A stretch of DNA of 54,150 bases from an uncultured bacterium (GCA_965369655.1 CBDUQR010000016.1:1-54150); one strand, 5' to 3'; positions 6,578-26,117 are shown, numbered from the stretch's first letter. The notes: generated by a model not told the origin, from the sequence alone. Translations and numbers: made by a program.

Positions 6578-6878
6578 TACTGTGGGCGGCAGACATCCTC
6601 GCAAGTCCTGAGCTTCGAAGGGTCTGCCACATCCTGATATTGGTATCGGCAGATGTGGAGAGGTTATCCCAAAAGACGCGAAAGGTGGGTAATCGTGTTT
6701 GCGAAAGAAAGTAGCGTCATTCCCGCGAAGGCGGGAATCTATTGAATGCGTTATCGTTGAATAGACTCCCGTGATATCCTGAGCAAAGCGAAGGGCCTTC
6801 GCGGGAGTGACAGAGTCGGTTTCCCACATGAGCTACTCAGCACTTTTGGGACAGCCTCTGGACATTTGCCCGGCACGG
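6578..6878. repeat. Composite REP-like element (GGCAGAC/GGCAGATG family) interrupted by a micro-insert and a MITE
   Basis: Colinear with the reverse complement of 11030-11105 once 6601-6621 and 6660-6862 are removed. Confidence 0.8.
6660..6858. mobile_element. MITE, 199 bp, 16-bp terminal inverted repeats, 4-bp target duplication TGGA
   Basis: Left GAGGTTATCCCAAAAG, right CTTTTGGGACAGCCTC (2 mismatches); TGGA at 6656-6659 and 6859-6862; internal GTCATTCCCGCGAAGGCGGGAATC palindromic repeat. Confidence 0.8.
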
Positions 6879-6904
6879 AAATCCCTAATTATGGAGGCGG
6901 AATA

Positions 6905-8437
6905 ATGCAGATAGATAATCTCGACAAGATTCTCAAAGAACTCGGAATCGAGAAGACGAATCTCGGCACGTCCGATGGTTCGGGCTGGTTTGCCAACGGC
7001 GCAGAGACACAGAGCATATCGCCGATCAATGGTCAGGTGATTGCAAAAGTCAAACAGGCGAACGCTGACGACTACAACAAGATCGTCGAGTCTGCGCAGA
7101 AGGCGTTCGCAATCTGGCGCGAAGTGCCTGCTCCCAAGCGCGGAGAAATCGTTCGGCAGCTCGGCGTCGCGCTGCGTGAGAAAAAAGACGCTCTCGGGTC
7201 GCTCGTGACAGCAGAGATGGGCAAGTCGATACAGGAGGGCAAAGGCGAAGTCCAGGAGATGATCGACATCTGCGATTATGCCTGTGGCCAGTCGCGGATG
7301 CTCTACGGCGTCCAGACCCACAGCGAGCGCGCATATCACCGGATGTACGAGCAGTGGCATCCGCTCGGAGTGGTCGGCATCATCAGCGCATTCAATTTTC
7401 CCGTCGCTGTCTGGGCATGGAATCTCGCAATCGCGCTTGTCTGCGGCGATGTCTGCGTGTGGAAACCGGCGTCACCGACACCGTTGACTGCGATTGCCTG
7501 TCAGAAAATCTGGGAGAAGGTCGCGAAGGCTAATAATCTTCCTGCCGGAATCTCATCGTTGTTCATCGGTAAAGGTTCGGAAGTCGGCGAGCTTCTCCTG
7601 AATGACAACAGGGTGCCACTTGTCAGCTACACCGGTTCGACGCGCATCGGTCGACGTATCGCCGAGGTTGTCGCCAAACGATTCGGCAGGACAATTCTCG
7701 AACTCGGCGGCAACAACGCGCTGATCGTCACACCTGCTGCTGATCTCGAACTTGCGTGCAAAGCAGTTCTATTCGGCGCTGTTGGAACTACAGGCCAGCG
7801 ATGCACGACGACGCGCCGTGTGATAGTCGAAGCGTCGATCTATGATAAGCTCGTCTCGACTCTTGAGCGCTACTACGGCAAGCTGACATACGGCAATCCC
7901 TTCGACGAGTCGAATCTCGTGGGGCCGATGGTCAACACGGGAGCCGTCGACGTGTATCTCGAAGCGATTGAGATCGTCAAGAAGCAGGGTGGAAAAATTC
8001 TCTGGGGTGGCGAGAAGATCGACAACGAGGGCGGATGCTATGCGAAGGCAACCGTAGCTGAAGTCACTAATGATCTGGAGATCGTGCAGGATGAGACATT
8101 CGCGCCGCTGTTGTATCTTATCAAGTATGAAGGCGATGTGAAGAATGCAATCGCAATTCAGAACGATGTCCCGCAGGGATTGAGTTCGTCGATCTTCACG
8201 AATGACATGATCGAATCGGAGAAATTCCTGTCGTGCGCAGGTTCGGACTGCGGCATTGCGAATGTCAACGTCGGAACATCCGGCGCGGAGATCGGGCTTG
8301 CGTTTGGTGGCGAGAAAGAGACCGGCGGCGGACGTGAATCGGGCAGTGACGCCTGGAAAGTCTACATGCGTCGCCAGTCGAACACGATCAACTGGTCCGG
8401 CGGTATGGAACTGGCGCAGGGGATAGAATTCGATTGA
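6905..8437 (+). CDS. Aldehyde dehydrogenase, ALDH7 / piperideine-6-carboxylate dehydrogenase-like
   Basis: PAPKRGEIVRQ, ISAFNFPVAVW, LELGGNNA, GQRCTT (catalytic Cys), FGGEKETGGGRESGSDAWK; ATG 6905 after GGAGG preferred to the ORF-track start 6866. Confidence 0.9.
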   Translation: MQIDNLDKILKELGIEKTNLGTSDGSGWFANGAETQSISPINGQVIAKVKQANADDYNKIVESAQKAFAIWREVPAPKRGEIVRQLGVALREKKDALGSLVTAEMGKSIQEGKGEVQEMIDICDYACGQSRMLYGVQTHSERAYHRMYEQWHPLGVVGIISAFNFPVAVWAWNLAIALVCGDVCVWKPASPTPLTAIACQKIWEKVAKANNLPAGISSLFIGKGSEVGELLLNDNRVPLVSYTGSTRIGRRIAEVVAKRFGRTILELGGNNALIVTPAADLELACKAVLFGAVGTTGQRCTTTRRVIVEASIYDKLVSTLERYYGKLTYGNPFDESNLVGPMVNTGAVDVYLEAIEIVKKQGGKILWGGEKIDNEGGCYAKATVAEVTNDLEIVQDETFAPLLYLIKYEGDVKNAIAIQNDVPQGLSSSIFTNDMIESEKFLSCAGSDCGIANVNVGTSGAEIGLAFGGEKETGGGRESGSDAWKVYMRRQSNTINWSGGMELAQGIEFD

Positions 8438-8570
8438 TGCAGGAGAATCACTGCTCTGCCCACCTTCGTGGGACTCGATAAGTGGCACACTCAGGATATG
8501 CGCGGGCCTAGGGTTACGCACAATTTCATCCCGGTCTGTCTATGATTGAACTACCTGGGGAGTAACATGC

Positions 8571-8665
8571 AAGCTCACGCCCACTTGCATGCCCTGAATG
8601 CGACGGGGGGGGCGTGACGACGTGGAGAAAAGCTATTCCTCACGCCCCGAGCGGGCGTGAGCTAC
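8571..8665. repeat. REP-like doublet (GTAG-type, GCTCACGCCC...GGGCGTGA)
   Basis: Two inverted copies of the palindrome; the right copy ends in GCTAC; the left copy carries a 22-nt insert. Confidence 0.65.
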
Positions 8666-8854
8666 ACTTCTGGCCAAGACTGAAGCCCGCCTGCAATTAT
8701 TGCATGTGGGCTTTGTGTTTGTATATCGCGCTCACAATTGTCTATCTTCTCTTATCCCTGCTTGACAAATCAGATCAGTATTTAGTAATTGCCTGCCTGA
8801 TTGCATAGCCTCAGCAACGACACCTGACAAGGCCTTATGCGGCGGGAGAATGTC

Positions 8855-10306
8855 ATGCGACCTGTTCTGAAGTTTCTCACTGATGAATTGATAGAGAAGA
8901 TTAAAGACGAAGCACGTGAACTGATCTGCAAACTCGGCGTCGAGATTCACAACGAGACTGTCGTGTCGATGCTCGCCGATCACGGTGCGAGAGTAGATGC
9001 AGAGAAACAACGCGTTTTCTTCACCGACGACATTATCGACAAATCAATCGGTTCCGCTCCGTCGTCGGTGAAGCTGTATGACGTGTCGGGCGAGCTGGCC
9101 GCAGATCTGTCCGGGTACAACGTGAACTACACACCGGGATCGGCTGCGATCAATATCCTCGATGGCGACAAGATCCGGAAGCCGCTGACGAAGGATTATG
9201 TTGATTACACGAAACTGGTGTGCGGAATGGAGCATATCGCGTTGCAGTCGACAGCGATGATACCGTCGGATGTGCATGAGCTGATCTCTGATTCATACCG
9301 TCTGTATCTGAGCCTCCTGTTCTGTGGCAAGCCAGTTGTGACTGGCACTTTCACGATTGAAGCATTCGAGATTATGAAAGATTTGCAGATTGCTGTGCGT
9401 GGCAGTCGCGAGGAACTTGCGGCGAAGCCATTGACTATGTTTTCATGCTGCCCGACGTCGCCGCTCAAGTGGAGCGAAGTGACATCTCAGAATGTAATCG
9501 ACTGTGCGAAATACTCGATCCCGGTCGAATACATTGCGATGCCGCTGTTGGGTTTCATGGCTCCGGCCACTCTCGTGGGGACGTTGATACAGCACACGGC
9601 GGAGACACTGAGCGGTCTTGCGATCAGCCAGCTTGCGAATCCGGGTACGCCGGTCGTATGGGGTGGATCGCCTGCGATATTCGATATCAGGTATGAGACG
9701 ACGCCGATGGGCGCGGTCGGCACGATGATGATCGACTGTGCTTACAACGAGATCGGCAAACATTTCGGACTGCCGACACAGGCGTATATCGGGCTTTCCG
9801 ATGCTAAGCTGCTCGATGCGCAGGCCGGACTTGAATCATCGATGGGAGCGACGGTAGCTGCTCTGAGTGGAATCAACAGCATCTCAGGACCCGGCATGCT
9901 CGATTTTGAGAGCTGTTTCTCGCTCGAGAAACTTGTGCTCGACAACGAAATCTGCGGCATGACACTTCGTATGATCGCAGGGATCGAGCCGAAGGAGGAC
10001 TTTCCGTCAATCGAAAGATTCGAGGAGTTGCTCAAAGATGGACACCTGTTGATTGCTGATCATACACGCAAGTATCTCCGGGAGGAAATACTATTCCCCG
10101 GGCCGACGATTGATCGCGCGAACAGATCGAGATGGCAGGAAGAGGGAAGCAGAAGACTCGGCGAAAGAGCGCATGGCGAAGTCAGACGAATTGTAGCCTC
10201 GTGGGACGGATACGTTCTCAGCGATGACATACGAACTGAACTAACAAAGCTGATGGAAACTGCGGCACGTCGTCACGGTATGGATAGACTGCCTGATATA
10301 CTATGA
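8855..10306 (+). CDS. Trimethylamine methyltransferase (MttB) superfamily protein, non-pyrrolysine type
   Basis: SPLKW, APATLVGTLIQHTAETLSG, PGTPVVWGG, SDAKLLDAQAGLE, SLEKLVLDNE motifs; no in-frame TAG; ATG 8855 after GGGAG (alternative 8837). Confidence 0.88.
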   Translation: MRPVLKFLTDELIEKIKDEARELICKLGVEIHNETVVSMLADHGARVDAEKQRVFFTDDIIDKSIGSAPSSVKLYDVSGELAADLSGYNVNYTPGSAAINILDGDKIRKPLTKDYVDYTKLVCGMEHIALQSTAMIPSDVHELISDSYRLYLSLLFCGKPVVTGTFTIEAFEIMKDLQIAVRGSREELAAKPLTMFSCCPTSPLKWSEVTSQNVIDCAKYSIPVEYIAMPLLGFMAPATLVGTLIQHTAETLSGLAISQLANPGTPVVWGGSPAIFDIRYETTPMGAVGTMMIDCAYNEIGKHFGLPTQAYIGLSDAKLLDAQAGLESSMGATVAALSGINSISGPGMLDFESCFSLEKLVLDNEICGMTLRMIAGIEPKEDFPSIERFEELLKDGHLLIADHTRKYLREEILFPGPTIDRANRSRWQEEGSRRLGERAHGEVRRIVASWDGYVLSDDIRTELTKLMETAARRHGMDRLPDIL

Positions 10307-11010
10307 GAGAGTTCTTCGGCATCTTAGTAGATCAAATCGTGCCATCGGTGAAAGCGGTGCTGCGAGCGCAGGGTATACCAGACGATGCGGAGCCTGCATC
10401 CAGTGTGATCGAACTTGCGGAAAGAGCTGTCGAAATGTTCAGCAGACTGGCAAGTCCGGTGGGTTTGATGTGTAATCTTGGGATTGACGAGTTCGGAGAG
10501 GTCTATGAAGGAGAAGGGCTGAACGAGGATGTTACCCCACTTGAGGATATTTACAAGCGAGCCGATCATCTCGCACTGTTTGGAGTGACCGTAGGAGAGG
10601 ACATCGGACAGGTGATCTCGTCGCTTTTTGACAAGAACGATTTCGCGCTCGGATCGATGCTCGATTCGGCAGCATCCGAGGGTGCCGAGAATGCCGCGCA
10701 GGAACTCCAACGAATGTATATCCAAAAACAGTCAGGAGAGTTTGGACCATCCGATGGAGCGCTCAGGTTCAGTCCCGGCTACTGCGGCTGGCATATCACT
10801 GCGCAACGGAAGCTGTTCGACATGCTCGACCCTGATGAGACAGTGATTTCGTTGAATGATAGTTGCCTGATGTCGCCTCTGAAGTCGATTTCCGGGGTGC
10901 TAGTGATCGGTCGAAAAGAGATATTCGAATTTGATGATTCGTTTCCATTCTGCTCAGAGTGCGCGCATCGATCATGCAGGGATAGAATAAGTTCAGTGCT
11001 GGAGCAGTGA
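10303..11010 (+). CDS. Stand-alone B12-dependent methionine synthase reactivation (SAM-binding) domain protein
   Basis: FGVTVG, RFSPGYCGW, LNDSCLMSPLKSISG, C-terminal CxxCxxxxC; overlaps the mttB stop codon. Confidence 0.85.
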   Translation: MREFFGILVDQIVPSVKAVLRAQGIPDDAEPASSVIELAERAVEMFSRLASPVGLMCNLGIDEFGEVYEGEGLNEDVTPLEDIYKRADHLALFGVTVGEDIGQVISSLFDKNDFALGSMLDSAASEGAENAAQELQRMYIQKQSGEFGPSDGALRFSPGYCGWHITAQRKLFDMLDPDETVISLNDSCLMSPLKSISGVLVIGRKEIFEFDDSFPFCSECAHRSCRDRISSVLEQ

Positions 11011-11029
11011 TAACAATGTTTGTAAATCT

Positions 11030-11143
11030 CGTGCGCGGCAGATGTCCACATCTGCCGATGACAACGCAAGATGGGGCAGACGAGGACGTCTGCCGCCCAC
11101 AGTACAGTACGAAGATGTCAGGATCGCGGGGATCCTGACCTAC
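11030..11143. repeat. Uninterrupted REP-like cluster (empty-site reference)
   Basis: GGCAGATGTCCACATCTGCC (11037-11056), GGCAGACGAGGACGTCTGCC and GTCAGGATCGCGGGGATCCTGACCTAC (11117-11143). Confidence 0.8.
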
Positions 11144-11170
11144 ATGAGTTGATAGCAGGAGTGTGATAAG

Positions 11171-11809
11171 ATGGAAATCCTCGATAAGCTGTCCGAGAGC
11201 CTTCAGAAAGGCGATGCAAAGGGTGTCGCGCAACTGACCGAATCCGCCATCGGAGAAGGGTTGTCTCCGCAGACTATACTCGACGATGGTCTCATTGCGG
11301 GCATGGCCGTGATCGGCGAGAAATTCAAGAAGCATGAGATATTCCTGCCGGATGTTCTTCTCGCAGCGAAAGCGATGTATGCGGGAATGGATTTGGTCAA
11401 GCCGCTTCTGATCCGAGACGGCATTCCCGCAATCGGAAGAGTTGTGATTGGATCGGTCAAGGGTGATCTCCACGATATCGGAAAGAACCTCGTCGGCATC
11501 ATGCTGAAGGGAGCAGGGTTCGAGGTGATCGATCTCGGCAACGATGTATCTCCAGAGAAGTTCATCGACGCCGCGCTGGAAAACGAAGCGCGGGTCATCG
11601 GGATGTCTGCACTGCTCACGACAACGATGCCGGGCATGAAAAAAGTTATCGATCTGGCGAAGGAACGGAACGTTTTCGACAAGCTGAAATTCGTTGTCGG
11701 CGGAGCGCCGGTCAACGACGATTATGCCAGAGAAATCGATGCTGACGCTTACTGTTTCGATGGAATCAAGGCAGTCGAATGCGTGAAAAGTCTTCTCGGT
11801 GTGAACTGA
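11171..11809 (+). CDS. Corrinoid (cobalamin-binding) protein, MttC/MtbC-like
   Basis: Cap domain IFLPDVLLAAKAM, DLHDIGKNLV B12 motif, MSALLTTTM, VGGAPV. Confidence 0.93.
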   Translation: MEILDKLSESLQKGDAKGVAQLTESAIGEGLSPQTILDDGLIAGMAVIGEKFKKHEIFLPDVLLAAKAMYAGMDLVKPLLIRDGIPAIGRVVIGSVKGDLHDIGKNLVGIMLKGAGFEVIDLGNDVSPEKFIDAALENEARVIGMSALLTTTMPGMKKVIDLAKERNVFDKLKFVVGGAPVNDDYAREIDADAYCFDGIKAVECVKSLLGVN

Positions 11810-11810
11810 C

Positions 11811-12704
11811 ATGGAATCCCTGATCGACAGGATCAAACGCGGAGACCTCTTGGTCGCGGATGGCGCGATGGGGACGATGTTATTTGAATCGGGACTCGAC
11901 CCGGGCGATTGCCCCGAAAAACTTAATGTAAGCAATCCAAAGCTGCTCGAAGATATTGCGCGCAGGTATCTCGATGCGGGCGCGGACATCCTGCAGACTA
12001 ATACCTTCGGTGCATCGCCATTGAAGCTCCAGCAGTATGGACTGGAAGACAAGACGGAAGAGATCAACATCACCGCAGTCGAGGTCGTGCGTTCGATTGC
12101 TGATGACAGGGCGTACGTCTCCGCATCGTGCGGGCCGAGCGGCAGGATTCTCAAGCCGTACGGTGATTGCGAGCCGGATGAATTGACCGAGAGTTTCGAA
12201 CGGCAGATTGCTGCGTTGGTGTCGGCGAGAATCGATATGCTTTGTATCGAGACAATGACCGATCTGAACGAAGCGACGATTGCGATCAAAGCTGCGCGTA
12301 AAGTCGATCCTGAGTTGACTGTGGCTGCGACAATGACTTTCGATTCGACTCCGCGAGGATTCTACACGATCATGGGAGTATCGATAGCTGATGCTGCCGC
12401 CGGTCTTGCAGAGGCAGGCGCGGATATCATCGGGTCGAACTGTGGCAACGGCGTCAGGAACATGGTAGAGATCGCGAAGGAGTTTCGTAAGTCAACGCAG
12501 ATGCCATTACTGATACAATCGAATGCCGGACTTCCCGAGATGATCGATGGCAAGCTGGCGTACAAAGAAACGCCTGAGTTCATGGCTGATGCCGCTGTGG
12601 AATTGTTCGAGCTTGGAGTCTCAATCGTCGGCGGATGCTGCGGAACGACACCTGAGCACATCGCAGCGATCAGAAAAGCGCTCGATTCGTACCAGCATAC
12701 TTAG
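11811..12704 (+). CDS. Homocysteine S-methyltransferase domain protein (MetH N-terminal / BHMT fold)
   Basis: DGAMGT, TNTFG, IETM, GSNC, SNAGLP, GGCCGT Zn ligands; 1 nt after the corrinoid gene. Confidence 0.92.
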   Translation: MESLIDRIKRGDLLVADGAMGTMLFESGLDPGDCPEKLNVSNPKLLEDIARRYLDAGADILQTNTFGASPLKLQQYGLEDKTEEINITAVEVVRSIADDRAYVSASCGPSGRILKPYGDCEPDELTESFERQIAALVSARIDMLCIETMTDLNEATIAIKAARKVDPELTVAATMTFDSTPRGFYTIMGVSIADAAAGLAEAGADIIGSNCGNGVRNMVEIAKEFRKSTQMPLLIQSNAGLPEMIDGKLAYKETPEFMADAAVELFELGVSIVGGCCGTTPEHIAAIRKALDSYQHT

Positions 12705-12756
12705 TGTCGCAATGGGTGATATGCTCAAACTTGTTTGGGCATGGACAGCACCACAT

Positions 12757-12899
12757 GTCATTCCCGCGAAGGCCCTTCGCTGTGCTCAGGATATTACGGG
12801 AATCTATTGAATGCTTTATCGTTAAATAGGCTCCCGCCTTCGCGGGAGCGACAGAGTCAGCGTCGCGCTCAGGTTTATTGGCACTTATAGGACAGCCTC
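12757..12899. repeat. Second copy of the ATTCCCGCGAAGGCGGGAAT palindromic repeat plus a MITE right end
   Basis: 12757-12858 aligns with 6716-6817; CTTATAGGACAGCCTC at 12884-12899 resembles the MITE right end; no clear left end found. Confidence 0.7.
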
Positions 12900-12933
12900 T
12901 TCACATCTGCTGCATCCTTGGAACAGATTCAGC

Positions 12934-12961
12934 TTGACAGTTTGTCAGCCGAACTTATAAT
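12934..12961 (+). promoter_or_regulatory. Sigma70-type promoter of tRNA-Thr
   Basis: TTGACA-N16-TATAAT. Confidence 0.75.
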
Positions 12962-12979
12962 AGCAGCGCGAAAACAGAG

Positions 12980-13052
12980 GCCGGCGTAACTCAGCTGGTA
13001 GAGTAGCTGATTTGTAATCAGCCAGTCGGGGGTTCGAGTCCCTTCGCCGGCT
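12980..13052 (+). tRNA. tRNA-Thr(TGT), CCA not encoded
   Basis: Acceptor GCCGGCG/CGCCGGC, anticodon arm GCTGA-TTTGTAA-TCAGC, T-loop GGTTCGAGTCC. Confidence 0.95.
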
Positions 13053-14082
13053 CTTGATCTTGTGTTTCCGCTCTCAAGTCTTTTATCAGCTTGTCGAAAG
13101 CTTTCTTGTATGATTTGGAATTTGTCCAGTCTTGGAAGTCGATGATTGTCAATTCCTTGACATCAGCAGCATACTTGTTCTTCCATTCCTCCGAATGAAC
13201 ATATTCATCGATGGTAATCGGAATCAAGACCTCAATGTCCAATCCTTGTTTCTTGAGGCTATCAGTCTTGCGCAAGGCACGATTGACTTCGCGCATTACT
13301 GGTCGTGACTCAAGAGAATTCTTGCTGCATACAAGGATCACTCTGTCTTTGTCTTTAATCTCATTATTGATGAACGCCCAGAGATCACCACTGGAATCTT
13401 CTTTGTATCTACAGCACTGGACATTTTCTTGAGTCAGATTACCGTAAAGCTTTGAGACAAACTCGTCATCTTTGTCAGAATACGAAATGAAGCATGTATG
13501 ATAATTGAAGTTCACCAGAAAACGTCCCAGATGTTCAATAAGGGAATTGGGATAACCGCATGCCCGCAAGAACGATGCGGGAAGTCCACCGCTCTTGAGC
13601 ATGGTGCGAATGTCAATGACATTTGGATACTTGTGTTGACATTTATCGAGTCCTACACAGTCATTTATTGCTGAGTCGATGATGACCGTCTCTCCCAGTT
13701 TGCTGAACGACAAGTCCGCTTGGCTGAGACATGAATGTCGAAAGGTGCATTTATACAGGTCTGTCCCCTGCAGGTTAGCGCGCAGCAGGTTTGATCTCTC
13801 AAAATGCGCACGCATCAGATTGGAACCGTACATATTGGTATCTATGAGCTTGGAGCCGCTAAAGTCAGCACCATCGAGGTTTAAATGAATGAGTTCTACT
13901 CCGGAGAGGTCAACCTTTGTCAGGTTAGCATTAGGTAGTTGGAAGCGATTCCGTGGTGGTTTGAAATCGGTCAGGTTAATAAGGGCACTTGACATCCCCA
14001 TAAGTACTGGATTCTCCTTCCTCCACTTATTCCATTCCTTCACACCCTGCTCAAGTATCTCCGAATACTTCGGCTTCGCCAT
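13018..14082 (-). CDS. Pentapeptide-repeat + C-terminal TIR domain protein
   Basis: WNKWRKENP start, A(N/D)L pentapeptide repeats, CFISYSDKD TIR box 1, SKNSLESRPVMREV with the conserved Glu, LIPITID, IIDFQDW. Confidence 0.88.
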   Translation of the reverse strand: MAKPKYSEILEQGVKEWNKWRKENPVLMGMSSALINLTDFKPPRNRFQLPNANLTKVDLSGVELIHLNLDGADFSGSKLIDTNMYGSNLMRAHFERSNLLRANLQGTDLYKCTFRHSCLSQADLSFSKLGETVIIDSAINDCVGLDKCQHKYPNVIDIRTMLKSGGLPASFLRACGYPNSLIEHLGRFLVNFNYHTCFISYSDKDDEFVSKLYGNLTQENVQCCRYKEDSSGDLWAFINNEIKDKDRVILVCSKNSLESRPVMREVNRALRKTDSLKKQGLDIEVLIPITIDEYVHSEEWKNKYAADVKELTIIDFQDWTNSKSYKKAFDKLIKDLRAETQDQEPAKGLEPPTG

Positions 14083-14178
14083 ATCTTCCTCCGCGGGGCA
14101 TACATGTTCCTATCTGCTTGAGAGAACTTATCTTCAGTCAGGAAGGTATTCTCAAGTTGCAAACTTGTCAAGAAAAGC

Positions 14179-14229
14179 GTCAGGATCGCCCTTCGCAAGG
14201 CTCAGGACTTTGCAGGGCTCCTGATCTAC
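14179..14229. repeat. GTAG-type REP interrupted by a 24-nt micro-insert
   Basis: GTCAGGATCGC[24 nt]AGGGCTCCTGATCTAC vs intact copy at 11117-11143. Confidence 0.75.
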
Positions 14230-14367
14230 GGGAATTCTCACTGCCGCCCACGGAATCCATATATATCGTTGACAATATTGGCTTTTATAGTAAATTGATA
14301 ATGCATGAATGGGCTTTGTGAGTTTTCAAATCTGATGGAATTATTGAAGTTATAAAGAGGAGTTGTA

Positions 14368-16503: not shown

Positions 16504-16544
16504 TGTTGTGACAAATTCGATTGGGTTCAGCGTCACTATCCTGA

Positions 16545-18212: not shown

Positions 18213-18215
18213 ATC

Positions 18216-19100
18216 TTGACAGAAAACGACGTTAAGAAAATCATCGTAGTCTCTGACGGCACTGGCAGGACTGCCCGGCGACTCATGGACGCGGTGCTCG
18301 CACAGTATGCGGGGCATGAGGCTCGATTCCGGCTCGAACATATATACAGCGACACAAGAACTCTGAAGCAACTCGCGAATATCATCGACGAAGTCGATCC
18401 CGACTCACTCGTCATTTTCTCTCTGATCGCCAAGGATCTAAGAAAGTATTTTCACAAGCGTCTCCACGAAGAAGAGATACTCCATCTCAATGTGCTGGAG
18501 CCGATGCTCTCGACGATGACCAAGTTCCTCGGCTTCCACCCTGAGTTCAAGCCCGGATTGCTTCAGATTATTGATGACAAGTACTATGAGAAAGTGGATG
18601 CGATCGGATTCACCGTAGAGCATGACGATGGACTCGGTCATCAAATCAACAAAGCCGATCTGGTGATTGTCGGCCCGTCGAGGACATGCAAGACCCCGAT
18701 CAGCATGTTCCTCGCGTGTAACTATGGCATGAAAGTAGCCAATATCCCGACGGTGAAGGGCAAAGAACAGGAACGCAGACTCCTCGATCACTTGAAAGAT
18801 GTCGATGATCGGAAAATTGTCGGTGTGACTATGCGCGCAGAAGTTCTTGCTCAGGTCCGGGAAGAGAGATCCGTGTTTCTTGTAAACGACGATGATTCAT
18901 CGGTGATTGATTCCTATGCGAGCATCGAGCAGATTGAAGAGGAACTGAAGTATGTCCGGGGTTTGTGCAATCGACAATGCTGGGAGATGGTGAACGTGAC
19001 TCGTCGCGCGATTGAAGAAATCTCTGCGGAGATTCTGGCGCTTCTGTTGTCTGATATTGACGACATGCCGGGCAAGGCCGATCTCGATGCTCGCGAGTAG
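18216..19100 (+). CDS. Kinase/pyrophosphorylase (PEP synthase / PPDK regulatory protein, DUF299)
   Basis: VSDGTGRTA, FTVEHDDG, GPSRTCKTP, KVANIP, RRAIEE. Confidence 0.88.
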   Translation: MTENDVKKIIVVSDGTGRTARRLMDAVLAQYAGHEARFRLEHIYSDTRTLKQLANIIDEVDPDSLVIFSLIAKDLRKYFHKRLHEEEILHLNVLEPMLSTMTKFLGFHPEFKPGLLQIIDDKYYEKVDAIGFTVEHDDGLGHQINKADLVIVGPSRTCKTPISMFLACNYGMKVANIPTVKGKEQERRLLDHLKDVDDRKIVGVTMRAEVLAQVREERSVFLVNDDDSSVIDSYASIEQIEEELKYVRGLCNRQCWEMVNVTRRAIEEISAEILALLLSDIDDMPGKADLDARE

Positions 19101-19155
19101 GGCTTGATGAAAAGGATTGTTGGCTTGAAATGCCGGGTGATCACCGCCCCGCACC

Positions 19156-19267
19156 GTCTTTGCGAGCGGTCGCCGATCCCCGAGGGACAGGGAGCGCGGC
19201 AATCTCTTGTCGGACAGTGGATTGCAGGAGACGGGATCGCCACGTCGCTGACGCTCCTCGCGATGAC
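19156..19267. repeat. TTGCGAG...GCAATC / GATNGCCACGTCGCT...CTCGCGATGAC palindromic intergenic repeat
   Basis: Terminal GTCTTTGCGAG / CTCGCGATGAC inverted arms with inner GGCAATCTC / GGGATCGCC arms. Confidence 0.6.
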
Positions 19268-19454
19268 GACGGCACAGGTCCGTGCCCGACATAGGGCTTT
19301 TCAACATGTTCGATTAGCGGGCAGACCGCAACCATCTGTTGACTAATCCACTCTGTCTGCTATATTGAAAACAGGCGATTCTTACCAGACTGTTTATGTG
19401 ATGTTCGATAGTGACGATAAATCAGTGATCGTAACCTCTTAAGGAGTGTGTGCA

Positions 19455-22163
19455 ATGAAAGCATACGTATTACCGAAGTGGCTGACGGCTCTTGCTATGA
19501 TCGTGTGCGTGTCTGCGATATTGCTGTGCGGTGTCGCGACGCTTTACGCCGGTGATGGGAGAGACGCTTCAGCGGAACCGATATGGATCTATGATTCGGA
19601 TCTATATGTCAAACATGTCGAAACGGCTGATCTGAATGGTGATGACATTTTGGATGTTATCGCCGGCGAGCACAACACGGACTACTACGGAGAACCATCC
19701 AGGGTAATCGCAATCGACGGAAAGACGGGTGACACGATCTGGACCTACCTGTTGAATGACGGCGTCAGGTCGATGACGGTCGGCGACATCAACAACGACA
19801 ATGTTGCGGATGTCATAGCCGGAGCATCGTATCACTCGACCCAGACTCCCGATGGACGCGTTCATGCTATTGACGGCACCGACGGAAGCCAGCTCTGGAC
19901 ATACTACATTGGCGCGACCATTGAGGATGTCCAGATCGGTGATTTCAACGGCGATGAGAATATGGATGTAGCAGCGGCGAGCTTCGACGATTATATCTAT
20001 GCCATTAATGGCGAGACCGGAGCCAGTCTCTGGAATCAGCTTATCGGCAGCATGTGGGTCAACGCTGTCGCCACAGGTGATGTCAACGGCGACAACATCG
20101 ACGATGTCGCGTTTGCTCACGAGTATATGACCAACTACGACAACTTCTACGGTGTTCTTGACGGCACGGATGGTTCGTTTATCTGGGCGGATACCGTTCC
20201 GTATGCCGTCCTGAATGTGGTGATGGTCGATATAGACGCGGATGACGACCTTGAGGCTATATTTGGTGGTGTATACTATGACGATCATGGCGAGATATTT
20301 ATCAGGAATGCCGCATCCGGCGAACTCGAATGGTCATACGACATCGGCTATGTTCATCATGTGAATGGCGAAATTCTCCTGCATCCGTACGACATCGATG
20401 AGGATACCGACCTCGATCTCGTTGTCGGGCGGTATATCGGAGGCTACACGCTATACGCATTCGACGGTGATGCACCGACGCTGATGTGGGAATCCGATTC
20501 GCTCGGTGTTTACCCGAGGGACATTGCATTTGGAGATTACACTGGTGACGGCAATTTGAATATATCTGTGGCAGGCTACGATCGTGTAGTGGTGCTGAAG
20601 GCTAACGGTGGATCGAAGATCTGGTATTATGCCGTTGCGGGTACGATGGCGAGCGTTGCGACCGGTGATTTCGATGATGATGGCATTGACGATGTCGCTG
20701 CCGGTGGTGGTGCGGACAATGTAGGGTCTACTCCGCCGAATCCGCAGAAGTCTGTCTGGGCTCTGAAGACAGTGTTATCACCTGTCCTCTGGGAGTTTGA
20801 TTTCGGTTCGTATGGCAATGAAGTCGCGCTCGGTGACGTTAATGGTGATGGCTGCGAGGATGTTGCCGTAGTGGCATCGTCCGGTGACAGGCTCTGGGTG
20901 ATCGATGGTGCAACGGGGACGGAACTCTGGCACTGGGCAGGCAATGACAATCTGTTCGCTGTGACAATCGGAGATTTCGATGGCAACGGTATGGGCGATG
21001 TGGCTGTCGGCGGCTATGACGCCGTCGTGACTGCGTTTGTCGGAGAGACAGGCGCATTCATGTGGGACTTTACGACGCCAACCGACGACGTCTACCGCAA
21101 GTGCCTTAAGTCGGCTGACCTGAATAAAGATAGCAATGTCGATGTGATCGCTGGCAGCGAGGACAACCATATCTATGCGATCAACGGAGAAGGCGGGGGA
21201 GAGCTGTGGAATTACGATTGCGGAGCGGACGTCAATGATCTCGTCCTCAGAGATATGAATTCGGATGACACTCTCGATGTCATCGTCGCGGTCGGCGGGG
21301 GGACATCGGGCGAGAAGGTCGTGGTAATTGACGGGAGAGATGGCAGCGAAATGTGGGCTCATAATGCGCCTGAATCCGTTGAGCATCTTGCTGTAGATGA
21401 TCCGAAAGCACCCGATTTTCCCGGCGAATCCTTCTTCGACGTCTTCTGTGCCGCGACACCCTATGGAACGAGGCAGGTTATCAAGATAGATGCGGACACG
21501 CATCTCGAAGACTGGTCGACCCCGATTGATGTTGCGTCGAATACACACGGGCTCGCTCGCGGTGACTGCAATGACGATGGTGTGCTGGATGTCGCTTTGC
21601 CGGGCAGTTCAACTTCGATGAGTGTATACCTGCTCGATGGCGTCGACGGAAGCATTCTATGGAGTTTCCCCACAGGTGGCGAGGTCAATTGCGTGCTGAT
21701 ATCCGACATTGATCTCGACGGCGATCTCGAAGTGATCGCCGGTTCGGACGATCAGAATGTATATGTGCTCGACGGACTCACCGGCAATGAAGAGTTCAAT
21801 TACAGCACTGCCGACGACGTTATGCATGTCATGGTCGGCGATGTCAACTGCGATGGTGAACCGAACATCGTAGTAGTGACTTTCGGATCGGACGGCGTCG
21901 TCTACGCGTTCAAGTCCCTCGTGACCGAACCGCAATATCTCTGCGGCGATGCCGACAGCAGTGGCGAAGTCGATATCGATGATGTTGTGTTTCTGATCAC
22001 ATACATATTTGCTAGCGGCCCGCCTCCGGAGCCGTTGGCTGCAGGAGATACCGATTGTTCAGGATTCATCGACATCGATGATGTTGTGTACCTGATTTAC
22101 TACATATTCGCGGGAGGACCAGCGCCCTGCGATCCGGATGGTAATGGGATACCGGACTGCTGA
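19455..22163 (+). CDS. Secreted FG-GAP / PQQ-type beta-propeller repeat protein with C-terminal dockerin-like domain
   Basis: Many GDxNxDxxxDV and IDGxxGxxLW repeats; signal peptide; CGDADSSGEVDIDD tail; AAGGAG SD (ORF-track start 19446). Confidence 0.85.
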   Translation: MKAYVLPKWLTALAMIVCVSAILLCGVATLYAGDGRDASAEPIWIYDSDLYVKHVETADLNGDDILDVIAGEHNTDYYGEPSRVIAIDGKTGDTIWTYLLNDGVRSMTVGDINNDNVADVIAGASYHSTQTPDGRVHAIDGTDGSQLWTYYIGATIEDVQIGDFNGDENMDVAAASFDDYIYAINGETGASLWNQLIGSMWVNAVATGDVNGDNIDDVAFAHEYMTNYDNFYGVLDGTDGSFIWADTVPYAVLNVVMVDIDADDDLEAIFGGVYYDDHGEIFIRNAASGELEWSYDIGYVHHVNGEILLHPYDIDEDTDLDLVVGRYIGGYTLYAFDGDAPTLMWESDSLGVYPRDIAFGDYTGDGNLNISVAGYDRVVVLKANGGSKIWYYAVAGTMASVATGDFDDDGIDDVAAGGGADNVGSTPPNPQKSVWALKTVLSPVLWEFDFGSYGNEVALGDVNGDGCEDVAVVASSGDRLWVIDGATGTELWHWAGNDNLFAVTIGDFDGNGMGDVAVGGYDAVVTAFVGETGAFMWDFTTPTDDVYRKCLKSADLNKDSNVDVIAGSEDNHIYAINGEGGGELWNYDCGADVNDLVLRDMNSDDTLDVIVAVGGGTSGEKVVVIDGRDGSEMWAHNAPESVEHLAVDDPKAPDFPGESFFDVFCAATPYGTRQVIKIDADTHLEDWSTPIDVASNTHGLARGDCNDDGVLDVALPGSSTSMSVYLLDGVDGSILWSFPTGGEVNCVLISDIDLDGDLEVIAGSDDQNVYVLDGLTGNEEFNYSTADDVMHVMVGDVNCDGEPNIVVVTFGSDGVVYAFKSLVTEPQYLCGDADSSGEVDIDDVVFLITYIFASGPPPEPLAAGDTDCSGFIDIDDVVYLIYYIFAGGPAPCDPDGNGIPDC

Positions 22164-22313
22164 TTTTGCTGAAGATAATATGATGCAAATTGTGACCGCA
22201 GGGGCTTGTGCTCTTGCGGTCTTGCTTTGTGTGCGAGTGGCGTTGGATGGTGAGATGACCGTCAAAAATCGCTTGATTTGGTCAAAATAGAATATATATT
22301 GCCGCTTCCCAAT

Positions 22314-22395
22314 GGAGGGGTTCCCGAGTGGTCAAAGGGAACAGACTGTAAATCTGTCGGCGAAGCCTTCGGAGGTTCAAATCCTCCCCCCTCCA
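22314..22395 (+). tRNA. tRNA-Tyr(GTA), CCA not encoded
   Basis: Acceptor GGAGGGG/CCCCTCC, ACAGA-CTGTAAA-TCTGT, long variable arm, GGTTCAAATCC. Confidence 0.95.
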
Positions 22396-22402
22396 TAATA
22401 TC

Positions 22403-22433
22403 AACCCGTGACATTCGAGCCGCGGGGTTTTTT
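22403..22433 (+). terminator. Intrinsic terminator after tRNA-Tyr
   Basis: AACCCGTG...CGCGGGG followed by T6. Confidence 0.65.
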
Positions 22434-22462
22434 GTACTCCGATCACAGAATAGACGTTGCCG

Positions 22463-22666
22463 CTACGGGTAATCCGGCACGCCGTCACCTGATTCGTACG
22501 GGTTCGGGGCTGCTCCTCCACCGAGTATTTATCCGACAATGAACATTATATCATCTATGTCGACTTCGCCGCTTGAATTGGCATCCCCACAGGCGACTTC
22601 GTCAATGCAGGAGTATGAGAACGAGTAGACGACTTTGACAGAAGGGACCACTCTGTTAGATTGCAT
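22463..22666 (-). pseudogene. Degenerate dockerin-like domain fragment
   Basis: Reverse translation ...IDEVACGDANSSGEVDIDDIMFIVG*ILGGGAAPNPYESGDGVPDYP*; in-frame TAA (22529-22531) at the conserved Tyr; second Ca-loop missing. Confidence 0.75.
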
Positions 22667-23017
22667 TAAGTGATGGTTTATCTCAGCAGTTGAAAGTCGC
22701 TGCAACATCAGAGGATAGTGACCGTCGCTTTGCTCGGATATTGGGAAAGGCGACGGTGTTTGTTCTCTATAAATCTGTCCCGGAGAGCATATCCAGGTCG
22801 TTCGAGAATCTTGTTGCGAAAGAAAAAAAACGGTTGACAGATTGATCGGTTTTGATTATCAAGTATAAGCCCTTCATACACAGCCCTCTTATCAGGCGGT
22901 CGTGAAATTTTAATTTCCCGGCCGCTTATTGTTTGTGTCCGCACCTGAATACCTGATGTGAAGCTTCAACTTGCTGATTCGGCTTGATAACACGGGTTCG
23001 CCCGATTATATAGTTGC

Positions 23018-23641
23018 ATGGATAAAATCCGGAGACTGTTGAAGAAACACTATCCCGAGGCGTGCTGTACGCTGAAACACAGATCACCGTTTACGCTGCT
23101 CATATCCACGATACTCTCGGCGCAGGCGACCGACAAATCGGTCAATCGAGTGACGCCTGAGCTTTTTTCGAGATTTCCGGATGCTGAGTCGTTCGCGCAA
23201 GCGCGACTGCCATCGATTGAGAAGATTATTAGGCCGTTGGGGCTGTATAACAACAAAGCGAAGAATATCAAGGCATGCTGCAGAATGCTCGTCGATGATT
23301 TCGGCGGCGAAATACCTCGGACCATAGCGGAGTTGACGCGGCTGCCGGGAGTGGGGCGGAAGACTGCTAATGTCGTGCTCGGCAATGCGTTCGATGTCAA
23401 CGAGGGTATCTGCGTCGATACGCATGTCGGACGGCTATCACGTCGGCTCGGCCTGTCGAAATCGAGAGACCCGAACAAAGTCGAACAGGACCTGATGAAG
23501 ATAGTCCCGAGGGATGACTGGACAATCATCTCGCATCTCCTGATAGCCCACGGCCGCCGTGTATGCGATTCACGAAAACCGGATTGTGAGAATTGCTTTC
23601 TGGAGAAGTTGTGTCCGAAGGTGGGGGTGAAGAGTAAATGA
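23018..23641 (+). CDS. nth: Endonuclease III
   Basis: LSAQATD, LPGVGRKTANVVL HhH, VDTHV, C-x6-C-x2-C-x5-C 4Fe-4S motif. Confidence 0.95.
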   Translation: MDKIRRLLKKHYPEACCTLKHRSPFTLLISTILSAQATDKSVNRVTPELFSRFPDAESFAQARLPSIEKIIRPLGLYNNKAKNIKACCRMLVDDFGGEIPRTIAELTRLPGVGRKTANVVLGNAFDVNEGICVDTHVGRLSRRLGLSKSRDPNKVEQDLMKIVPRDDWTIISHLLIAHGRRVCDSRKPDCENCFLEKLCPKVGVKSK

Positions 23642-23670
23642 CACCGTGAACAGACAAGATTCCGAATCAG

Positions 23671-24144
23671 ATGGGAGGAAAGATGGTAAAGTTGCATGCT
23701 ATGTTTGAAGCAGACTGGTTGTTCAAGGATGGTAAATGGAGTGACGAATCTAAGCTGCTCGAAGTTGATACTTCAAAGCTGCCCAATTTAGGAGTGTATG
23801 TCATCTACACTGGTTCAAGCATTCAGCGTATCCAAGGGTCTGACAAATTAGGTGTAATACACATCGGTCAAGGGAATCTGCAATCAAGAATTAATGCATT
23901 CCTTAAGTGTGCCAGGGGTGACTGGCAGAAGGGTCATTCTGAGGGAGTCAGGTTCAAGCTGTTCGACTATGCGAAAGTAACCAAGACTCAAGCCGATGAT
24001 CTGATGGTGCGTTGGACGAGAATAAGAAACGCTGTTGAACTTGAAGGGAAGTTACATATGCAATACATTCAGCGATTCGGCGAATTACCGCCACTCAACC
24101 ATCAGGTAAGCAAATCTGTTTCCAAGAAGCTAAGGACCTCGTAA
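23671..24144 (+). CDS. GIY-YIG-like nuclease domain protein
   Basis: GVYVI ... IHIGQG NLQSRI ... E ... LPPLN pattern; start may be ATG 23683 after GGAGG. Confidence 0.6.
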   Translation: MGGKMVKLHAMFEADWLFKDGKWSDESKLLEVDTSKLPNLGVYVIYTGSSIQRIQGSDKLGVIHIGQGNLQSRINAFLKCARGDWQKGHSEGVRFKLFDYAKVTKTQADDLMVRWTRIRNAVELEGKLHMQYIQRFGELPPLNHQVSKSVSKKLRTS

Positions 24145-24383
24145 CTGAGCCTTCGTTCGTGTCATTCGAGCCACAACAACTGTGCGCACGGATTTACAGT
24201 TGCACAAGAATTGAGCCTGTCGTTCGGATGGCATTTGACTTGTTCCTGCTGTTAATACAAACCTATGCAGCCATTTGCGTGCTGAATATTCGTGGATGAG
24301 ATCTTGCGGCATTGTGTTTGCTTATGTATATTGATAATTAAATCTATGATTGAACAGGAAAGCAAGTCGGTAAGGGAGGAACA

Positions 24384-25154
24384 ATGACTTTACATTATGC
24401 CAAGCGAGGATGGCGACCTCTGGCCGCCCTAATTGTGGTCGTGGCATCGGTGGCTATCTTCTGTAGCGCTGCGTTGGCGGACGGCGCTGGGGGAACAGAG
24501 TTCAGATCCGGACTCCGGTCCATGCAGTTTGGGATTGAGCGCGATTTCCAGCTCGGTGCATTCGATGGATTTCTCCTATCATGCAAAAGACACATCTCAC
24601 CGAACTCTGCGTATCGGCTCGGGCTGACGCTCGATGCAAGTTCTCAAAACAATGGACGGCTCCCGGCTAAACAATTCCCTGGGACCCAAGTACAGAGAAG
24701 GGATTCGTATTCAGACTATGACGGTAATTGGGCTGACATAGATGTCCAGCTGCTGTATGTGCGCTACATGTCACCCGAGAAACGTATCAGGCCATTCTGG
24801 GGGCTTGGCCCGAGTATCGGGTACTACCGCTATGACTATGAGCGCGATGGGGAGATTCAGGACCCATACTATACGAGTGCCGATTGGGACTATACGTATA
24901 CGCTGACAGGTGGGATTGCTGGTGTATTCGGTGTGGAATGGTTCGCATGGGACGGGATCAGCTTTCTTGCAGAGTATCGTGCGGCTCTCACTTACACCTA
25001 TTGGTCTGAGGAATACCGTCTGACGAACAACAGTCAAAACAGCAGCATTCGCAATATAAGCAGGCAACTGAGCTTTGAGTCGCAGGCTGTCATGTTCGGA
25101 ATCGCAGTCTATCTGAATGGCATGTGTAGGATCAATAAGTTGATGGAGTTGTAA
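24384..25154 (+). CDS. Outer-membrane beta-barrel protein (paralog 1)
   Basis: Signal peptide, alternating beta-strand pattern, QFGIERDFQLG and GVFGVEWF shared with the next gene; C-terminus appears extended. Confidence 0.7.
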   Translation: MTLHYAKRGWRPLAALIVVVASVAIFCSAALADGAGGTEFRSGLRSMQFGIERDFQLGAFDGFLLSCKRHISPNSAYRLGLTLDASSQNNGRLPAKQFPGTQVQRRDSYSDYDGNWADIDVQLLYVRYMSPEKRIRPFWGLGPSIGYYRYDYERDGEIQDPYYTSADWDYTYTLTGGIAGVFGVEWFAWDGISFLAEYRAALTYTYWSEEYRLTNNSQNSSIRNISRQLSFESQAVMFGIAVYLNGMCRINKLMEL

Positions 25155-25156
25155 CG

Positions 25157-25846
25157 ATGGCAATTCAAAGATACAATCGGACAATTTGCCGCAAGCTTTG
25201 TGGAATTGCGCTAATACTGTTGATGCTCGCAGCAATTCCCGCGTATGGCGAGAATGGCGACGAAGCGCCAGCGAAATGGTCTCTTCAGTTTGGCATTGAG
25301 AGAGATTTTCAGCTTGGCGAATTCGATGGAATGCAGATATCGATTCGGAAACACTGTTCGGCTCAAAAAGCCTGGCGTTTGGGAGCGTCATTTAACTGTT
25401 TAATTGCCAATGGTGACATTGAAAGACATAGTTACGATGAAGTGAACATGGATATCCTTGAGAGCGACTTCAGAGGATTCGAAGCAGTCTTGTCGCTGAT
25501 ACATGAGTGGCATCCGCTCAGATCGAAATCAATCAGGGCAATTATAGGTTGTGGACCTGAATTGGGGTTAGAAACAAGCAATTATGAAATCGATCAACCT
25601 GGGAGATTGAGAGCGGAGGATATCCAGGCTTATCATGCTGGACTTAGAGGTGTTTTCGGTGCTGAGTGGTTTGTTGCCAAGCAGATAAGTTTAATCGGAG
25701 AATATGCATTATCTATCGTGTATTCTCATGAATCAACTGTTAATACGAATGAATATACTACCAGAAGCACTGAACTTGTAACTAAGAAGAACTCATTCGA
25801 GCTGGCTACGAATTCGGTGAACTTCGGGGTGTCGGTGTATTTCTGA
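25157..25846 (+). CDS. Outer-membrane beta-barrel protein (paralog 2)
   Basis: Signal peptide, QFGIERDFQLG, GVFGAEWF, terminal FGVSVYF beta-signal. Confidence 0.75.
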   Translation: MAIQRYNRTICRKLCGIALILLMLAAIPAYGENGDEAPAKWSLQFGIERDFQLGEFDGMQISIRKHCSAQKAWRLGASFNCLIANGDIERHSYDEVNMDILESDFRGFEAVLSLIHEWHPLRSKSIRAIIGCGPELGLETSNYEIDQPGRLRAEDIQAYHAGLRGVFGAEWFVAKQISLIGEYALSIVYSHESTVNTNEYTTRSTELVTKKNSFELATNSVNFGVSVYF

Positions 25847-25887
25847 TCGTGGGGATGGGCATGTTCTTTGAAATCGGTAGATGTGGA

Positions 25888-26042
25888 GAGGCTGTCACAT
25901 AAGTAGGTCGTGTTCCGAACCTGATGTAATCAGGTGAGAAACGCGACACCTCTATCTTGTTGACTGACAGTCGGGTTTCTTGCAGGCTACTCCTGCTGCG
26001 GAACGCCGACCTACAGGAGAACAGAATTTTTGAGGCAGCCTC
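25888..26042. mobile_element. MITE, 155 bp, GAGGCTG terminal inverted repeats, in the same REP target as 6660-6858
   Basis: GAGGCTGTCACATAAG ... TTTTGAGGCAGCCTC; flanks AGATGTGGA / GGGACATCTGCC (TGGA/GGGA duplication); internal GTAGGTCG...CGACCTAC REP pair. Confidence 0.72.
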
Positions 26043-26068
26043 GGGACATCTGCCGCACGGATGAGGAT

Positions 26069-26117
26069 GGACCCCGGCAGGTCCTGAGCTAAAGCGAAGG
26101 GTTTTCACCGGGGTGAC
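26069..26117. repeat. GTCACCCCGGTGAAAACCGGGGTCC palindrome (minus strand) interrupted by a 24-nt micro-insert
   Basis: Removing 26077-26100 restores GGACCCCG-GTTTTCACCGGGGTGAC. Confidence 0.7.

Follow-up and report, generated by a model that had tools for sequence, protein, structure and literature searches.

The 54,150-nucleotide (nt) stretch of DNA analysed here (the window) is contig C16 of a 2.99-Mb, 100-contig assembly from an uncultured bacterium (GCA_965369655.1, CBDUQR010000016.1:1-54150), and it carries five copies of a 21- to 24-nt module that lies inside unrelated hairpin repeats. The closest described counterparts of this module are the small dispersed repeats (SDRs) of Nostocaceae, which Elhai et al. 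2008 (Genome Res 18:1484) reportedly presented as "very small mobile repeated elements." The SDRs are said to be embedded in mini-transposons and heptamer runs, to nest within themselves and to form arrays, and their secondary structure is said to be backed by compensatory changes, with an RNA intermediate being suggested. In the accessible parts of papers citing that work (PMC5861425, PMC13756078, PMC2884548, PMC3116915), SDR1 to SDR8 of Nostoc punctiforme and its relatives are 21 to 27 nt long (SDR5, 21 nt), have no known enzyme or function, which for SDR5 was still the position in a 2026 introduction, and are not found outside Nostocaceae. The module falls within the size and high-copy range that defines SDRs, with 21 to 24 nt and 160 strict copies in the genome. 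It is likewise nested in other repeats, namely, in hosts of the repetitive extragenic palindromic (REP) type and their doublets (REPINs), in heptamer runs, at the apex of a miniature inverted-repeat transposable element (MITE), and in a related hairpin; it forms arrays of two to four units, and its structure is backed by covariation. This likeness rests on behavior, SDR1 to SDR8 having been compared by description and not by sequence; no text quoting SDR sequences was found in the literature search. The two differ in that the module occurs in a sediment bacterium and in many phyla, whereas the accessible parts of the papers cited above report SDRs only in Nostocaceae. Furthermore, the hosts here are REPs and not the highly iterated palindrome HIP1, and no Nostoc plasmid is among the 45 plasmid records that bear the module.

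REPs and REPINs, as described in the accessible parts of Bertels and Rainey 2011 (PMC3116915) and Di Nocera et al. 2013 (PMC3733652), are short extragenic hairpins of high copy number, a character that the module shares. The available text of the latter paper assigns to CGTC-1 REPs a tag (CGTC or TGTC), a stem of 8 bp that begins with AT, a loop of 4 nt, and a CCA or CTA tail, and one host family in this genome has these stated features. The same text of PMC3733652 notes that REP families include long- and short-loop variants, with unusual loop lengths in some, and that CGTC REPs have no dedicated transposase; loop length is treated there as family variation, and no loop cassette shared across families is described in it. 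The module also resembles REPINs in forming inverted doublets in other genomes (loci L026 and L168) and, in some variants from other phyla, in having a TGAC tail on the side of the CGTC tag. It differs in that its conserved part is the loop, whereas that of a REP is the terminal tag and stem, and in that the unit itself has neither a GTAG nor a CGTC tag here, the tags belonging to its hosts. The module is a passenger inside REPs, whereas the REPs that flank genes for REP-associated tyrosine transposases (RAYTs) are of the empty form.

Elements of the IS200/IS605 family act on folded single strands and make oriented insertions beside a short target without duplicating it; they have two end hairpins and usually carry TnpA or depend on it. 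The module folds into a single hairpin, is inserted at no fixed word, and has no TnpA linked to it, the Y1 genes of the genome being unlinked. REP hairpins are, in addition, landing sites for insertion sequences and MITEs that target REP loops (IS1397; Tobes and Pareja 2006, listed in the accessible part of PMC3116915). Such elements span from 100 nt to kilobases and have terminal inverted repeats and target duplications; the module has neither. We rejected the module being a MITE, as the CCTTCG end and the tail are not inverted repeats and the junction microhomology is 0 to 2 nt and variable, and its being a slippage minisatellite, as most copies are single units in unrelated hosts and heterotypic neighbors occur. 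No description of the module was found in the literature searched by core DNA words and encoded peptide words.

Copies of the module in the window and in the genome

The module was sought on both strands with the pattern CCTTCG-N1-6-GCTCAGG. Five strict matches were found in the window (6607-6621 and 6778-6794 on the minus strand, 12774-12790 and 14190-14206 on the plus strand, and 26083-26100 on the minus strand), with 0.02 being expected, and 0 of 100 dinucleotide shuffles reached five. The modules to which these matches belong, and their hosts, are as follows.

6601..6621, minus strand: 21-nt module CCTTCGAAGCTCAGGACTTGC; F1 host palindrome (6588-6628), with the module following the 5' arm and preceding the loop hexamer; a member of the family ladder described below
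6771..6794, minus strand: 24-nt module CCTTCGCTTTGCTCAGGATATCAC; host, a CGTC-tagged, REPIN-like repeat of two hairpins (6715-6811), filled in its right hairpin
12774..12797, plus strand: 24-nt module CCTTCGCTGTGCTCAGGATATTAC in the left hairpin of a repeat of the same CGTC-tagged family as at 6771 (12756-12852)
14190..14213, plus strand: 24-nt module in a GTAG-tagged REP, GTCAGGATC..GCTCCTGATC-TAC (14179-14229)
26077..26100, minus strand: 24-nt module whose spacer is 5 nt long; host, the CGTC-type hairpin ACCCCGGTG..CCGGGGT (26071-26117)

The boundary of the 14190 module is ambiguous by 2 nt, positions 14188-14211 being equivalent. In the genome as a whole, 160 strict matches were counted (78 on one strand and 82 on the other) versus 1 in a Markov-1 simulated genome. 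This number is a lower bound, as point-mutated copies exist besides; three of the matches (on C27, C34, and C39) resemble chance matches in unique sequence. A looser pattern that allowed one mismatch per half gave 580 matches versus 347 in the simulated genome and was too noisy to be of use.

That these copies are insertions is seen when they are removed. For each copy, 15 to 66 nt were deleted, and the rejoined flanks (9 plus 9 nt) were sought elsewhere in the genome. An existing 18-mer was obtained for 99 of the 160 copies, compared to 95 of 2,000 random sites, and in 91 of these 99 copies, the deletion was of exactly 21 to 24 nt (21 nt, 29 copies; 22 nt, 12; 23 nt, 12; 24 nt, 38). Within the window, the 12774 copy heals to a sequence with 12 empty copies, the 6771 copy, by a 24-nt deletion, to one with 2, and the 26077 copy to one with 3. 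The 6601 copy gave an exact 18-mer only with an 18-nt cut, and the 14190 copy gave none, yet the former is consistent with the F1 family and the latter with its own family, whose members heal. A shorter 10-mer flank test gave no information, such words being too common.

The F1 family is the host in which this is plainest. The empty host is a 20-nt palindrome consisting of GGCAGAY, a loop hexamer, and RTCTGCC, and the genome contains 63 such palindromes without a unit, 31 with one, 9 with two, and 1 each with three and four (both strands counted, then halved). The corresponding lengths of 20, 41 to 42, 62 to 63, 85, and 106 nt form a ladder of 20 + n × 21, with n being 0 to 4. A family flanking tag lies 3' of the insert in 22 of 34 filled F1 copies, with clear opposite-side cases on C58 and C15, and one hairpin on C2 has one unit per strand at mirror positions on either side of the loop. 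Tandem neighbors can be of two subtypes (C1:281112, C30:1804, C17:34660, and C74), and a dimer of a 21-nt and a 22-nt unit recurs at many F1 loci. An aberrant 21-nt filling at C3:94096 begins with 14 nt of module and ends with the 7 nt of the host arm GGCAGAC, repeated in direct orientation.

Copies are strongly enriched in hairpins genome-wide. A perfect hairpin with a stem of at least 6 bp surrounds 67 of 158 copies versus 208 of 3,000 random sites, and one with a stem of at least 8 bp surrounds 29 of 158 versus 14 of 3,000; both counts are underestimates, as inserts that break an arm are missed. In the strict copies, CCTTCG is preceded by C in 138 flank triplets and by T in 19, with no longer conserved word. 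The junctions of 93 healed copies lack microhomology in 15 cases and have 1 nt of it in 49 (C in 41) and 2 nt in 17; arrays account for the longer values, and no target duplication of a fixed length was found.

These results agree with much of the original prediction, which was made from the window sequence. The recurrence of the motif at the five places and on the strands named there, the restoration of a hairpin upon deletion (directly at 12774, 6771, and 26077 and by family fit at 6601 and 14190), and the enrichment within palindromes across the genome, which it had named as a check, were all upheld, as was the statement that one host repeat has the insert in its right arm at 6771 and in its left arm at 12774, at the equivalent base. 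The rule that each insert follows a C holds for the 138 flank triplets given above and not for the 19 with T. The prediction had also counted a degenerate sixth copy, which, judging from its sequence, is plausible, and had noted an intact copy or arm of four of the five host families in the window. The latter could be confirmed, with empty hosts being present for F1, ATTCCCGCGAAGGCGGGAAT, GTCAGGATC..GATCCTGAC, and TCACGCCC..GGGCGTGA. These and the remaining features of the window are listed here.

6719..6738: empty CGTC-1-like host hairpin ATTCCCGCGAAGGCGGGAAT (ATTCCCGC-GAAG-GCGGGAAT)
8587..8608, minus strand: degenerate module-like filling inside a TCACGCCC..GGGCGTGA hairpin, by resemblance only
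8640..8660: empty hairpin TCACGCCC-CGAGC-GGGCGTGA, the host type of the filling at 8587
11037..11094: two empty F1 palindromes, GGCAGATGTCCACATCTGCC at 11037 and GGCAGACGAGGACGTCTGCC at 11075
11117..11139: empty GTAG-type REP GTCAGGATC-GCGGG-GATCCTGAC
12980..13052, plus strand: tRNA gene, by which the 12774 site is recognized as orthologous

The two F1 palindromes and the GTCAGGATC REP at 11037-11139 adjoin one another and constitute a small repeat cluster in which all members are empty.

Insertion point and structure of the module

The hosts of the module span at least 10 unrelated families of small repeats. In addition to F1, they include GTAG REPs with arms GTCGAAACC, GTCAGGAnC, GTCAAGCGG, GTCACGCC, or GTCATGCC followed by CTAC; the CGTC-tagged repeats, with the CGTC-1 features given above; and hosts with ATTCCGGYG, ACCCCTGCG, GTCCCCGT, ATCACCACG, or ATTGCCACG, as well as the CACTCCGYTTCGC element. 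Insertion takes place at the junction of stem and loop. In F1, the unit directly follows the 5' arm and directly precedes the loop hexamer; in GTAG REPs, it lies at the border of the 5' arm and the loop, for example, between GTCAAGCGG on one side and GCAGG CCGCTTGAC on the other. In the CGTC host, which forms inverted doublets, the unit lies between the loop and the 3' arm and interrupts the stem asymmetrically, and the first six bases of the module pair with the host loop CGAAGG. We considered pairing of the host loop with CCTTCG as a general rule and rejected it; it is true for several hosts and fails for hosts with a GTCCAC loop. Similarly, complementarity of spacer and tail as a general second stem applies to F1 and some GTAG hosts but not to the CGTC host.

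The constant part of the module is a loop, TCG-N2-5-GCTC, with a closing T-A pair, and the stem next to it varies provided that pairing is kept. Considering only instances with flanks not fixed by the search patterns (n = 203), three or more Watson-Crick pairs beside the loop were present in 84, compared to a mean of 9.3 and a maximum of 20 in 1,000 shuffles of the partners. The stems comprise GGC/GCC (23 instances), TGG/CCA (19), TGC/GCA (12), and at least 11 other types. Copies in this genome have a short stem, CCT/AGG, beyond which a C/A mismatch is usual, and a tail of 5 to 8 nt follows the loop and stem. In computed folds of F1 and GTAG REPs, unit and host stem are stacked coaxially and CTCAGGA forms the tip; at 6601, the module is predicted to stack on the host stem with CTCAGGA as the apical loop. 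A search against Rfam gave no family at threshold except two tRNAs. Below threshold, RF02901 (Aggregatibacter sRNA 41), a small RNA (sRNA) family, matched weakly and partially at L026:1495-1559 and L168:1390-1532 (30 to 32 bits versus a cutoff of 97), and by this weak match, its seed contains an inverted module pair.

Empty sites in relatives and distribution across phyla

The genome of a same-genus relative (G001), whose genes are approximately 78 to 84% identical to those of this genome, provides empty sites for comparison. On C490 of G001, the same tRNA gene is preceded by the orthologous CGTC doublet, which lacks the 24 nt. For the 14190 copy, the probable orthologous empty site in G001 is a short-looped REP, as far from a conserved promoter-like block as the REP in the window. 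The composite repeat around the CGTC doublet (window 6645-6880, about 125 to 230 nt) has approximately 60 matching places in G001, and the alignments extend over about 209 nt of the 232-nt query, which fits copies without the 24-nt insert. In spite of this abundance of hosts, G001 has only 2 strict matches, compared to the 160 described here. Relative G040 contains a RAYT gene (L345) flanked by the empty form of the GTCAGGAGC REP, the host family of the 14190 copy. The empty hosts of G001, the empty REPs that flank the RAYT gene of G040, and the presence of the same filling in unrelated hosts together indicate that the direction of change is insertion and not deletion. The filled and empty pair that the original prediction had called for in a sister genome was thus obtained at 12774 and probably at 14190. 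Other sites were too rearranged, with the spacers at 6601/6771, at 26077, and on C13 either rearranged or lacking the host repeat in G001 and with C17 lacking usable synteny.

The module is a cross-phylum family. Among 41 genomes of the same class, 34 carry the pattern, with up to 41 copies (0 to 2 for a reversed-pattern control), and a scan of one genome per species gave at least 120 loci, with titles spanning many phyla. A minority of the single cross-phylum matches look like chance; among the cross-phylum matches listed, spacers are nonrandom (ACAA, 24; ACAG, 22) and tails recur. Whole-genome counts, for which controls were run, were 275 in a metagenome-assembled genome (MAG) of Chloroflexaceae, 110 in Microbacterium mangrovi, 101 in a Synechococcaceae MAG, and 37 in a Leptolyngbyaceae MAG. 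The distribution is patchy, as illustrated by 151 cyanobacterial genomes of which a few have 131, 105, 61, 43, or 39 copies and most have 0 to 3. Small Patescibacteria genomes also carry the module, as do 45 plasmid records, mostly from Sphingobium, Moraxella osloensis, Streptomyces, Novosphingobium, and Comamonas, with Sphingobium and Comamonas replicons bearing several copies. A 19-base version is present on at least 120 viral contigs, often between head-morphogenesis genes; no match was found in a named phage collection at an E-value limit that requires about 23 identical bases and is therefore insensitive.

The contexts in other genomes agree with those in this one. There the module is found at hairpin apices, in tandem arrays with a period of 21 to 24 nt (L054, L224, and L233), in runs of heptamer (7-base) repeats (L093, L120, and L123), and, in G037, in the loop of a related hairpin. 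In a 7.1-Mb cyanobacterial genome (G183; L313-L330), it sits at many loci in the middle of a long MITE-like palindrome, between GAAACCCCAAAAGCTGTTCCGC and GCGGAACAGCTTTTGGGGTTTC. A region of the Microbacterium mangrovi genome (G044:C20:58827-59732) holds a long mixed array in which the module recurs at least 14 times, at spacings of about 36 and 71 nt.

If the module truly moves, it would be among the smallest insertion units known and gene-less, and the question would arise as to what reads an 11-nt loop in so many phyla. SDR-like behavior extends far outside the cyanobacteria and to cultured bacteria such as M. mangrovi, which opens the mechanism to testing.

Mechanism and competing explanations

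In light of these data, we favor the explanation that the insert is a real SDR-like micro-insertion module that was multiplied together with its hosts, to which we assign a probability of roughly 75%, a figure that does not extend to any enzyme. The data show the insertion and its position, the arrays, the multiplication with the hosts, and the cross-phylum family. A discrete, oriented, self-folding unit of 21 to 24 nt was inserted into preexisting hairpins at the stem-loop junction, and it can reinsert at the same place, which gives head-to-tail arrays. Insertions were rare, and each filled repeat was then multiplied in the same way as the other copies of its family. Such multiplication explains both why subtypes track their hosts and why 160 copies are present here compared to 2 in the same-genus genome. 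We infer that insertion acts on folded single-stranded DNA and that a trans-acting factor reads the conserved loop; the conservation of this loop across phyla, along with the covarying stem, argues against a purely enzyme-free copy-choice process. By analogy, a strand-transfer nuclease acting like the HUH enzymes of IS200/IS605 would be our best guess for such a factor, albeit a doubtful one. A wider proposal, speculative though slightly easier to entertain, is that of a gene-less micro-transposon of about 21 to 24 nt that is read via the 11 nt of its hairpin loop, is mobile in most bacterial phyla as well as in phage or prophage DNA, and is placed at stem-loop junctions by a core replication or repair protein or an unrecognized trans-acting nuclease, with the Nostoc SDRs being one local case.

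Several observations weigh against the model of an inserted and comultiplied module. The 5' boundary and the tail differ among host families, which is a poor fit to a single cut-and-paste unit, and the orthologous filled and empty pairs amount to one clean and one probable case, the other sites being too rearranged to compare. The subtypes follow the host, with spacer AA in F1, CTGT or CTTT in the CGTC doublet, and CAGG or CAAA in GTAG REPs, so that most copies arose by multiplication of filled repeats; independent insertions probably number in the tens, perhaps only a few tens, and spread within families could be due to gene conversion. A lagging-strand mechanism acting on single strands might predict a strand bias relative to GC skew, and none was seen in a crude test (39/35 versus 24/30; P = 0.38). 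Clustering of the neighbors at 270 loci revealed no module-linked gene, as only common families recur (ABC transporters, FG-GAP/dockerin proteins, OsmC, and phage head genes). Lastly, no Y1 match was found in two module-rich, possibly incomplete cyanobacterial genomes with 61 and 37 copies. The original prediction had named as damaging to it the case that filled and empty forms are old subfamilies with no sign of independent insertion. The multiplication with hosts goes part of the way toward this, yet the filled and empty forms, the length ladder, and the empty orthologue support insertion.

The search for an enzyme included Y1 transposases; the original prediction had pointed to an HUH or RAYT-type transposase. 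This genome has five Y1 matches. Four are RAYT-like genes; each has REPs of a type of its own at its sides, and the module flanks none of them. Of 20 Y1 genes in the module-rich relatives G037, G029, G040, and G016, none is bracketed by the module. Around one disrupted Y1 match (L354), core motifs are confined to the downstream side, where there are three at 180 to 260 nt. The best Y1_Tnp match of this genome (C23:20496-20732) lies inside a frame of 1,072 residues that is not RAYT-like and may be a fused or unrelated protein. Y1 genes are present in 37 of the 41 genomes of the class irrespective of the module count. Similarly, eight possibly incomplete cyanobacterial genomes with at least 30 copies have 9, 17, 0, 6, 1, 0, 5, and 5 Y1 matches, and cyanobacterial genomes with 12 to 19 Y1 genes have 0 to 2 module copies. 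With none of the 24 genes examined flanked on both sides and with Y1 counts unrelated to module counts, the proposed HUH/RAYT link was not borne out, and the lack of a linked or covarying gene argues against a simple RAYT-like partnership. Of the predicted minimal mobile unit placed by a structure-targeting mechanism, what stands is the discrete unit in hairpins.

The most serious competitor, which we regard as a minority possibility, dispenses with a dedicated enzyme: the cassette would pass from one repeat into another when a polymerase switches templates at the base of a hairpin, or through short tracts of gene conversion between repeat copies, and slippage would make the arrays. Junction microhomology of 1 to 2 nt is indeed common (66 of 93 copies), insert subtypes remain within host families, arrays are head to tail, no linked gene was found, and even the small Patescibacteria genomes have the module. 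However, 15 of the 93 junctions have no microhomology, heterotypic tandem pairs are not products of slippage, the ends are defined and the length range is narrow in more than 10 unrelated hosts, and the cross-phylum conservation of the loop with a covarying stem implies a sequence-specific reader that this model lacks. That same conservation would be expected if the loop were a selected functional site, such as a protein-binding or RNA motif, with filled and empty forms being loop variants of REPs; long- and short-loop variants are on record for REP families in the accessible text of PMC3733652, and the weak RF02901 match of the inverted module pair points in the same direction. We nevertheless consider a functional site improbable, given that the insert interrupts the CGTC stem asymmetrically, occurs as one to four tandem units, and recurs in unrelated hosts, heptamer repeats, and MITE apices, that its copy number is very patchy among close relatives (160 versus 2), and that it has no orientation bias relative to neighboring genes (30 sense and 37 antisense).

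The absence of an orientation bias with respect to transcription also speaks against retro-insertion, in which a small structured RNA would be reverse transcribed into nicked hairpins. While the covariation fits a folded RNA as well as DNA and the unit matches a small RNA in size, no reverse transcriptase of PF00078 was detected in this genome (99.5% complete) or in the six module-rich relatives (one closed), and the five relatives with such an enzyme have 8, 0, 2, 1, and 10 module matches, making this route quite unlikely. It is still harder to accept that the filled form is ancestral and that empties arose by precise deletion of the inner hairpin. Hairpins are prone to deletion, and the orthologous pair alone gives no direction, but each unrelated host family would need the same ancestral filling, the RAYT-flanking REPs are empty in G040, G001 has many hosts and almost no fillings, and there are multi-unit arrays and two-sided insertions. 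Finally, the 21 to 24 nt might be the joined ends left by excision of a larger element, as also raised in the original prediction, and the variable spacer between CCTTCG and GCTCAGG could mark the former junction. This did not hold up and is scarcely credible: no long DNA splits the module among 81 left and 61 right F1/F2 junctions, the exceptional ones are all point mutated, truncated, or host derived, and no recurrent neighboring gene was found.

The module also has practical consequences, as it breaks short-read assemblies at repeats and inflates the apparent diversity of REPs, and it seeds spurious open reading frames. The sequencing runs that match the assembly are marine sediment metagenomes. 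No gain or loss of 21 to 24 nt was listed in Logan contigs of three runs from one study, but these contigs end inside or beside modules and carry no information on this point. The public short-read contigs of these three runs stop inside or beside modules at window positions 12785-12830 and 14179-14208.

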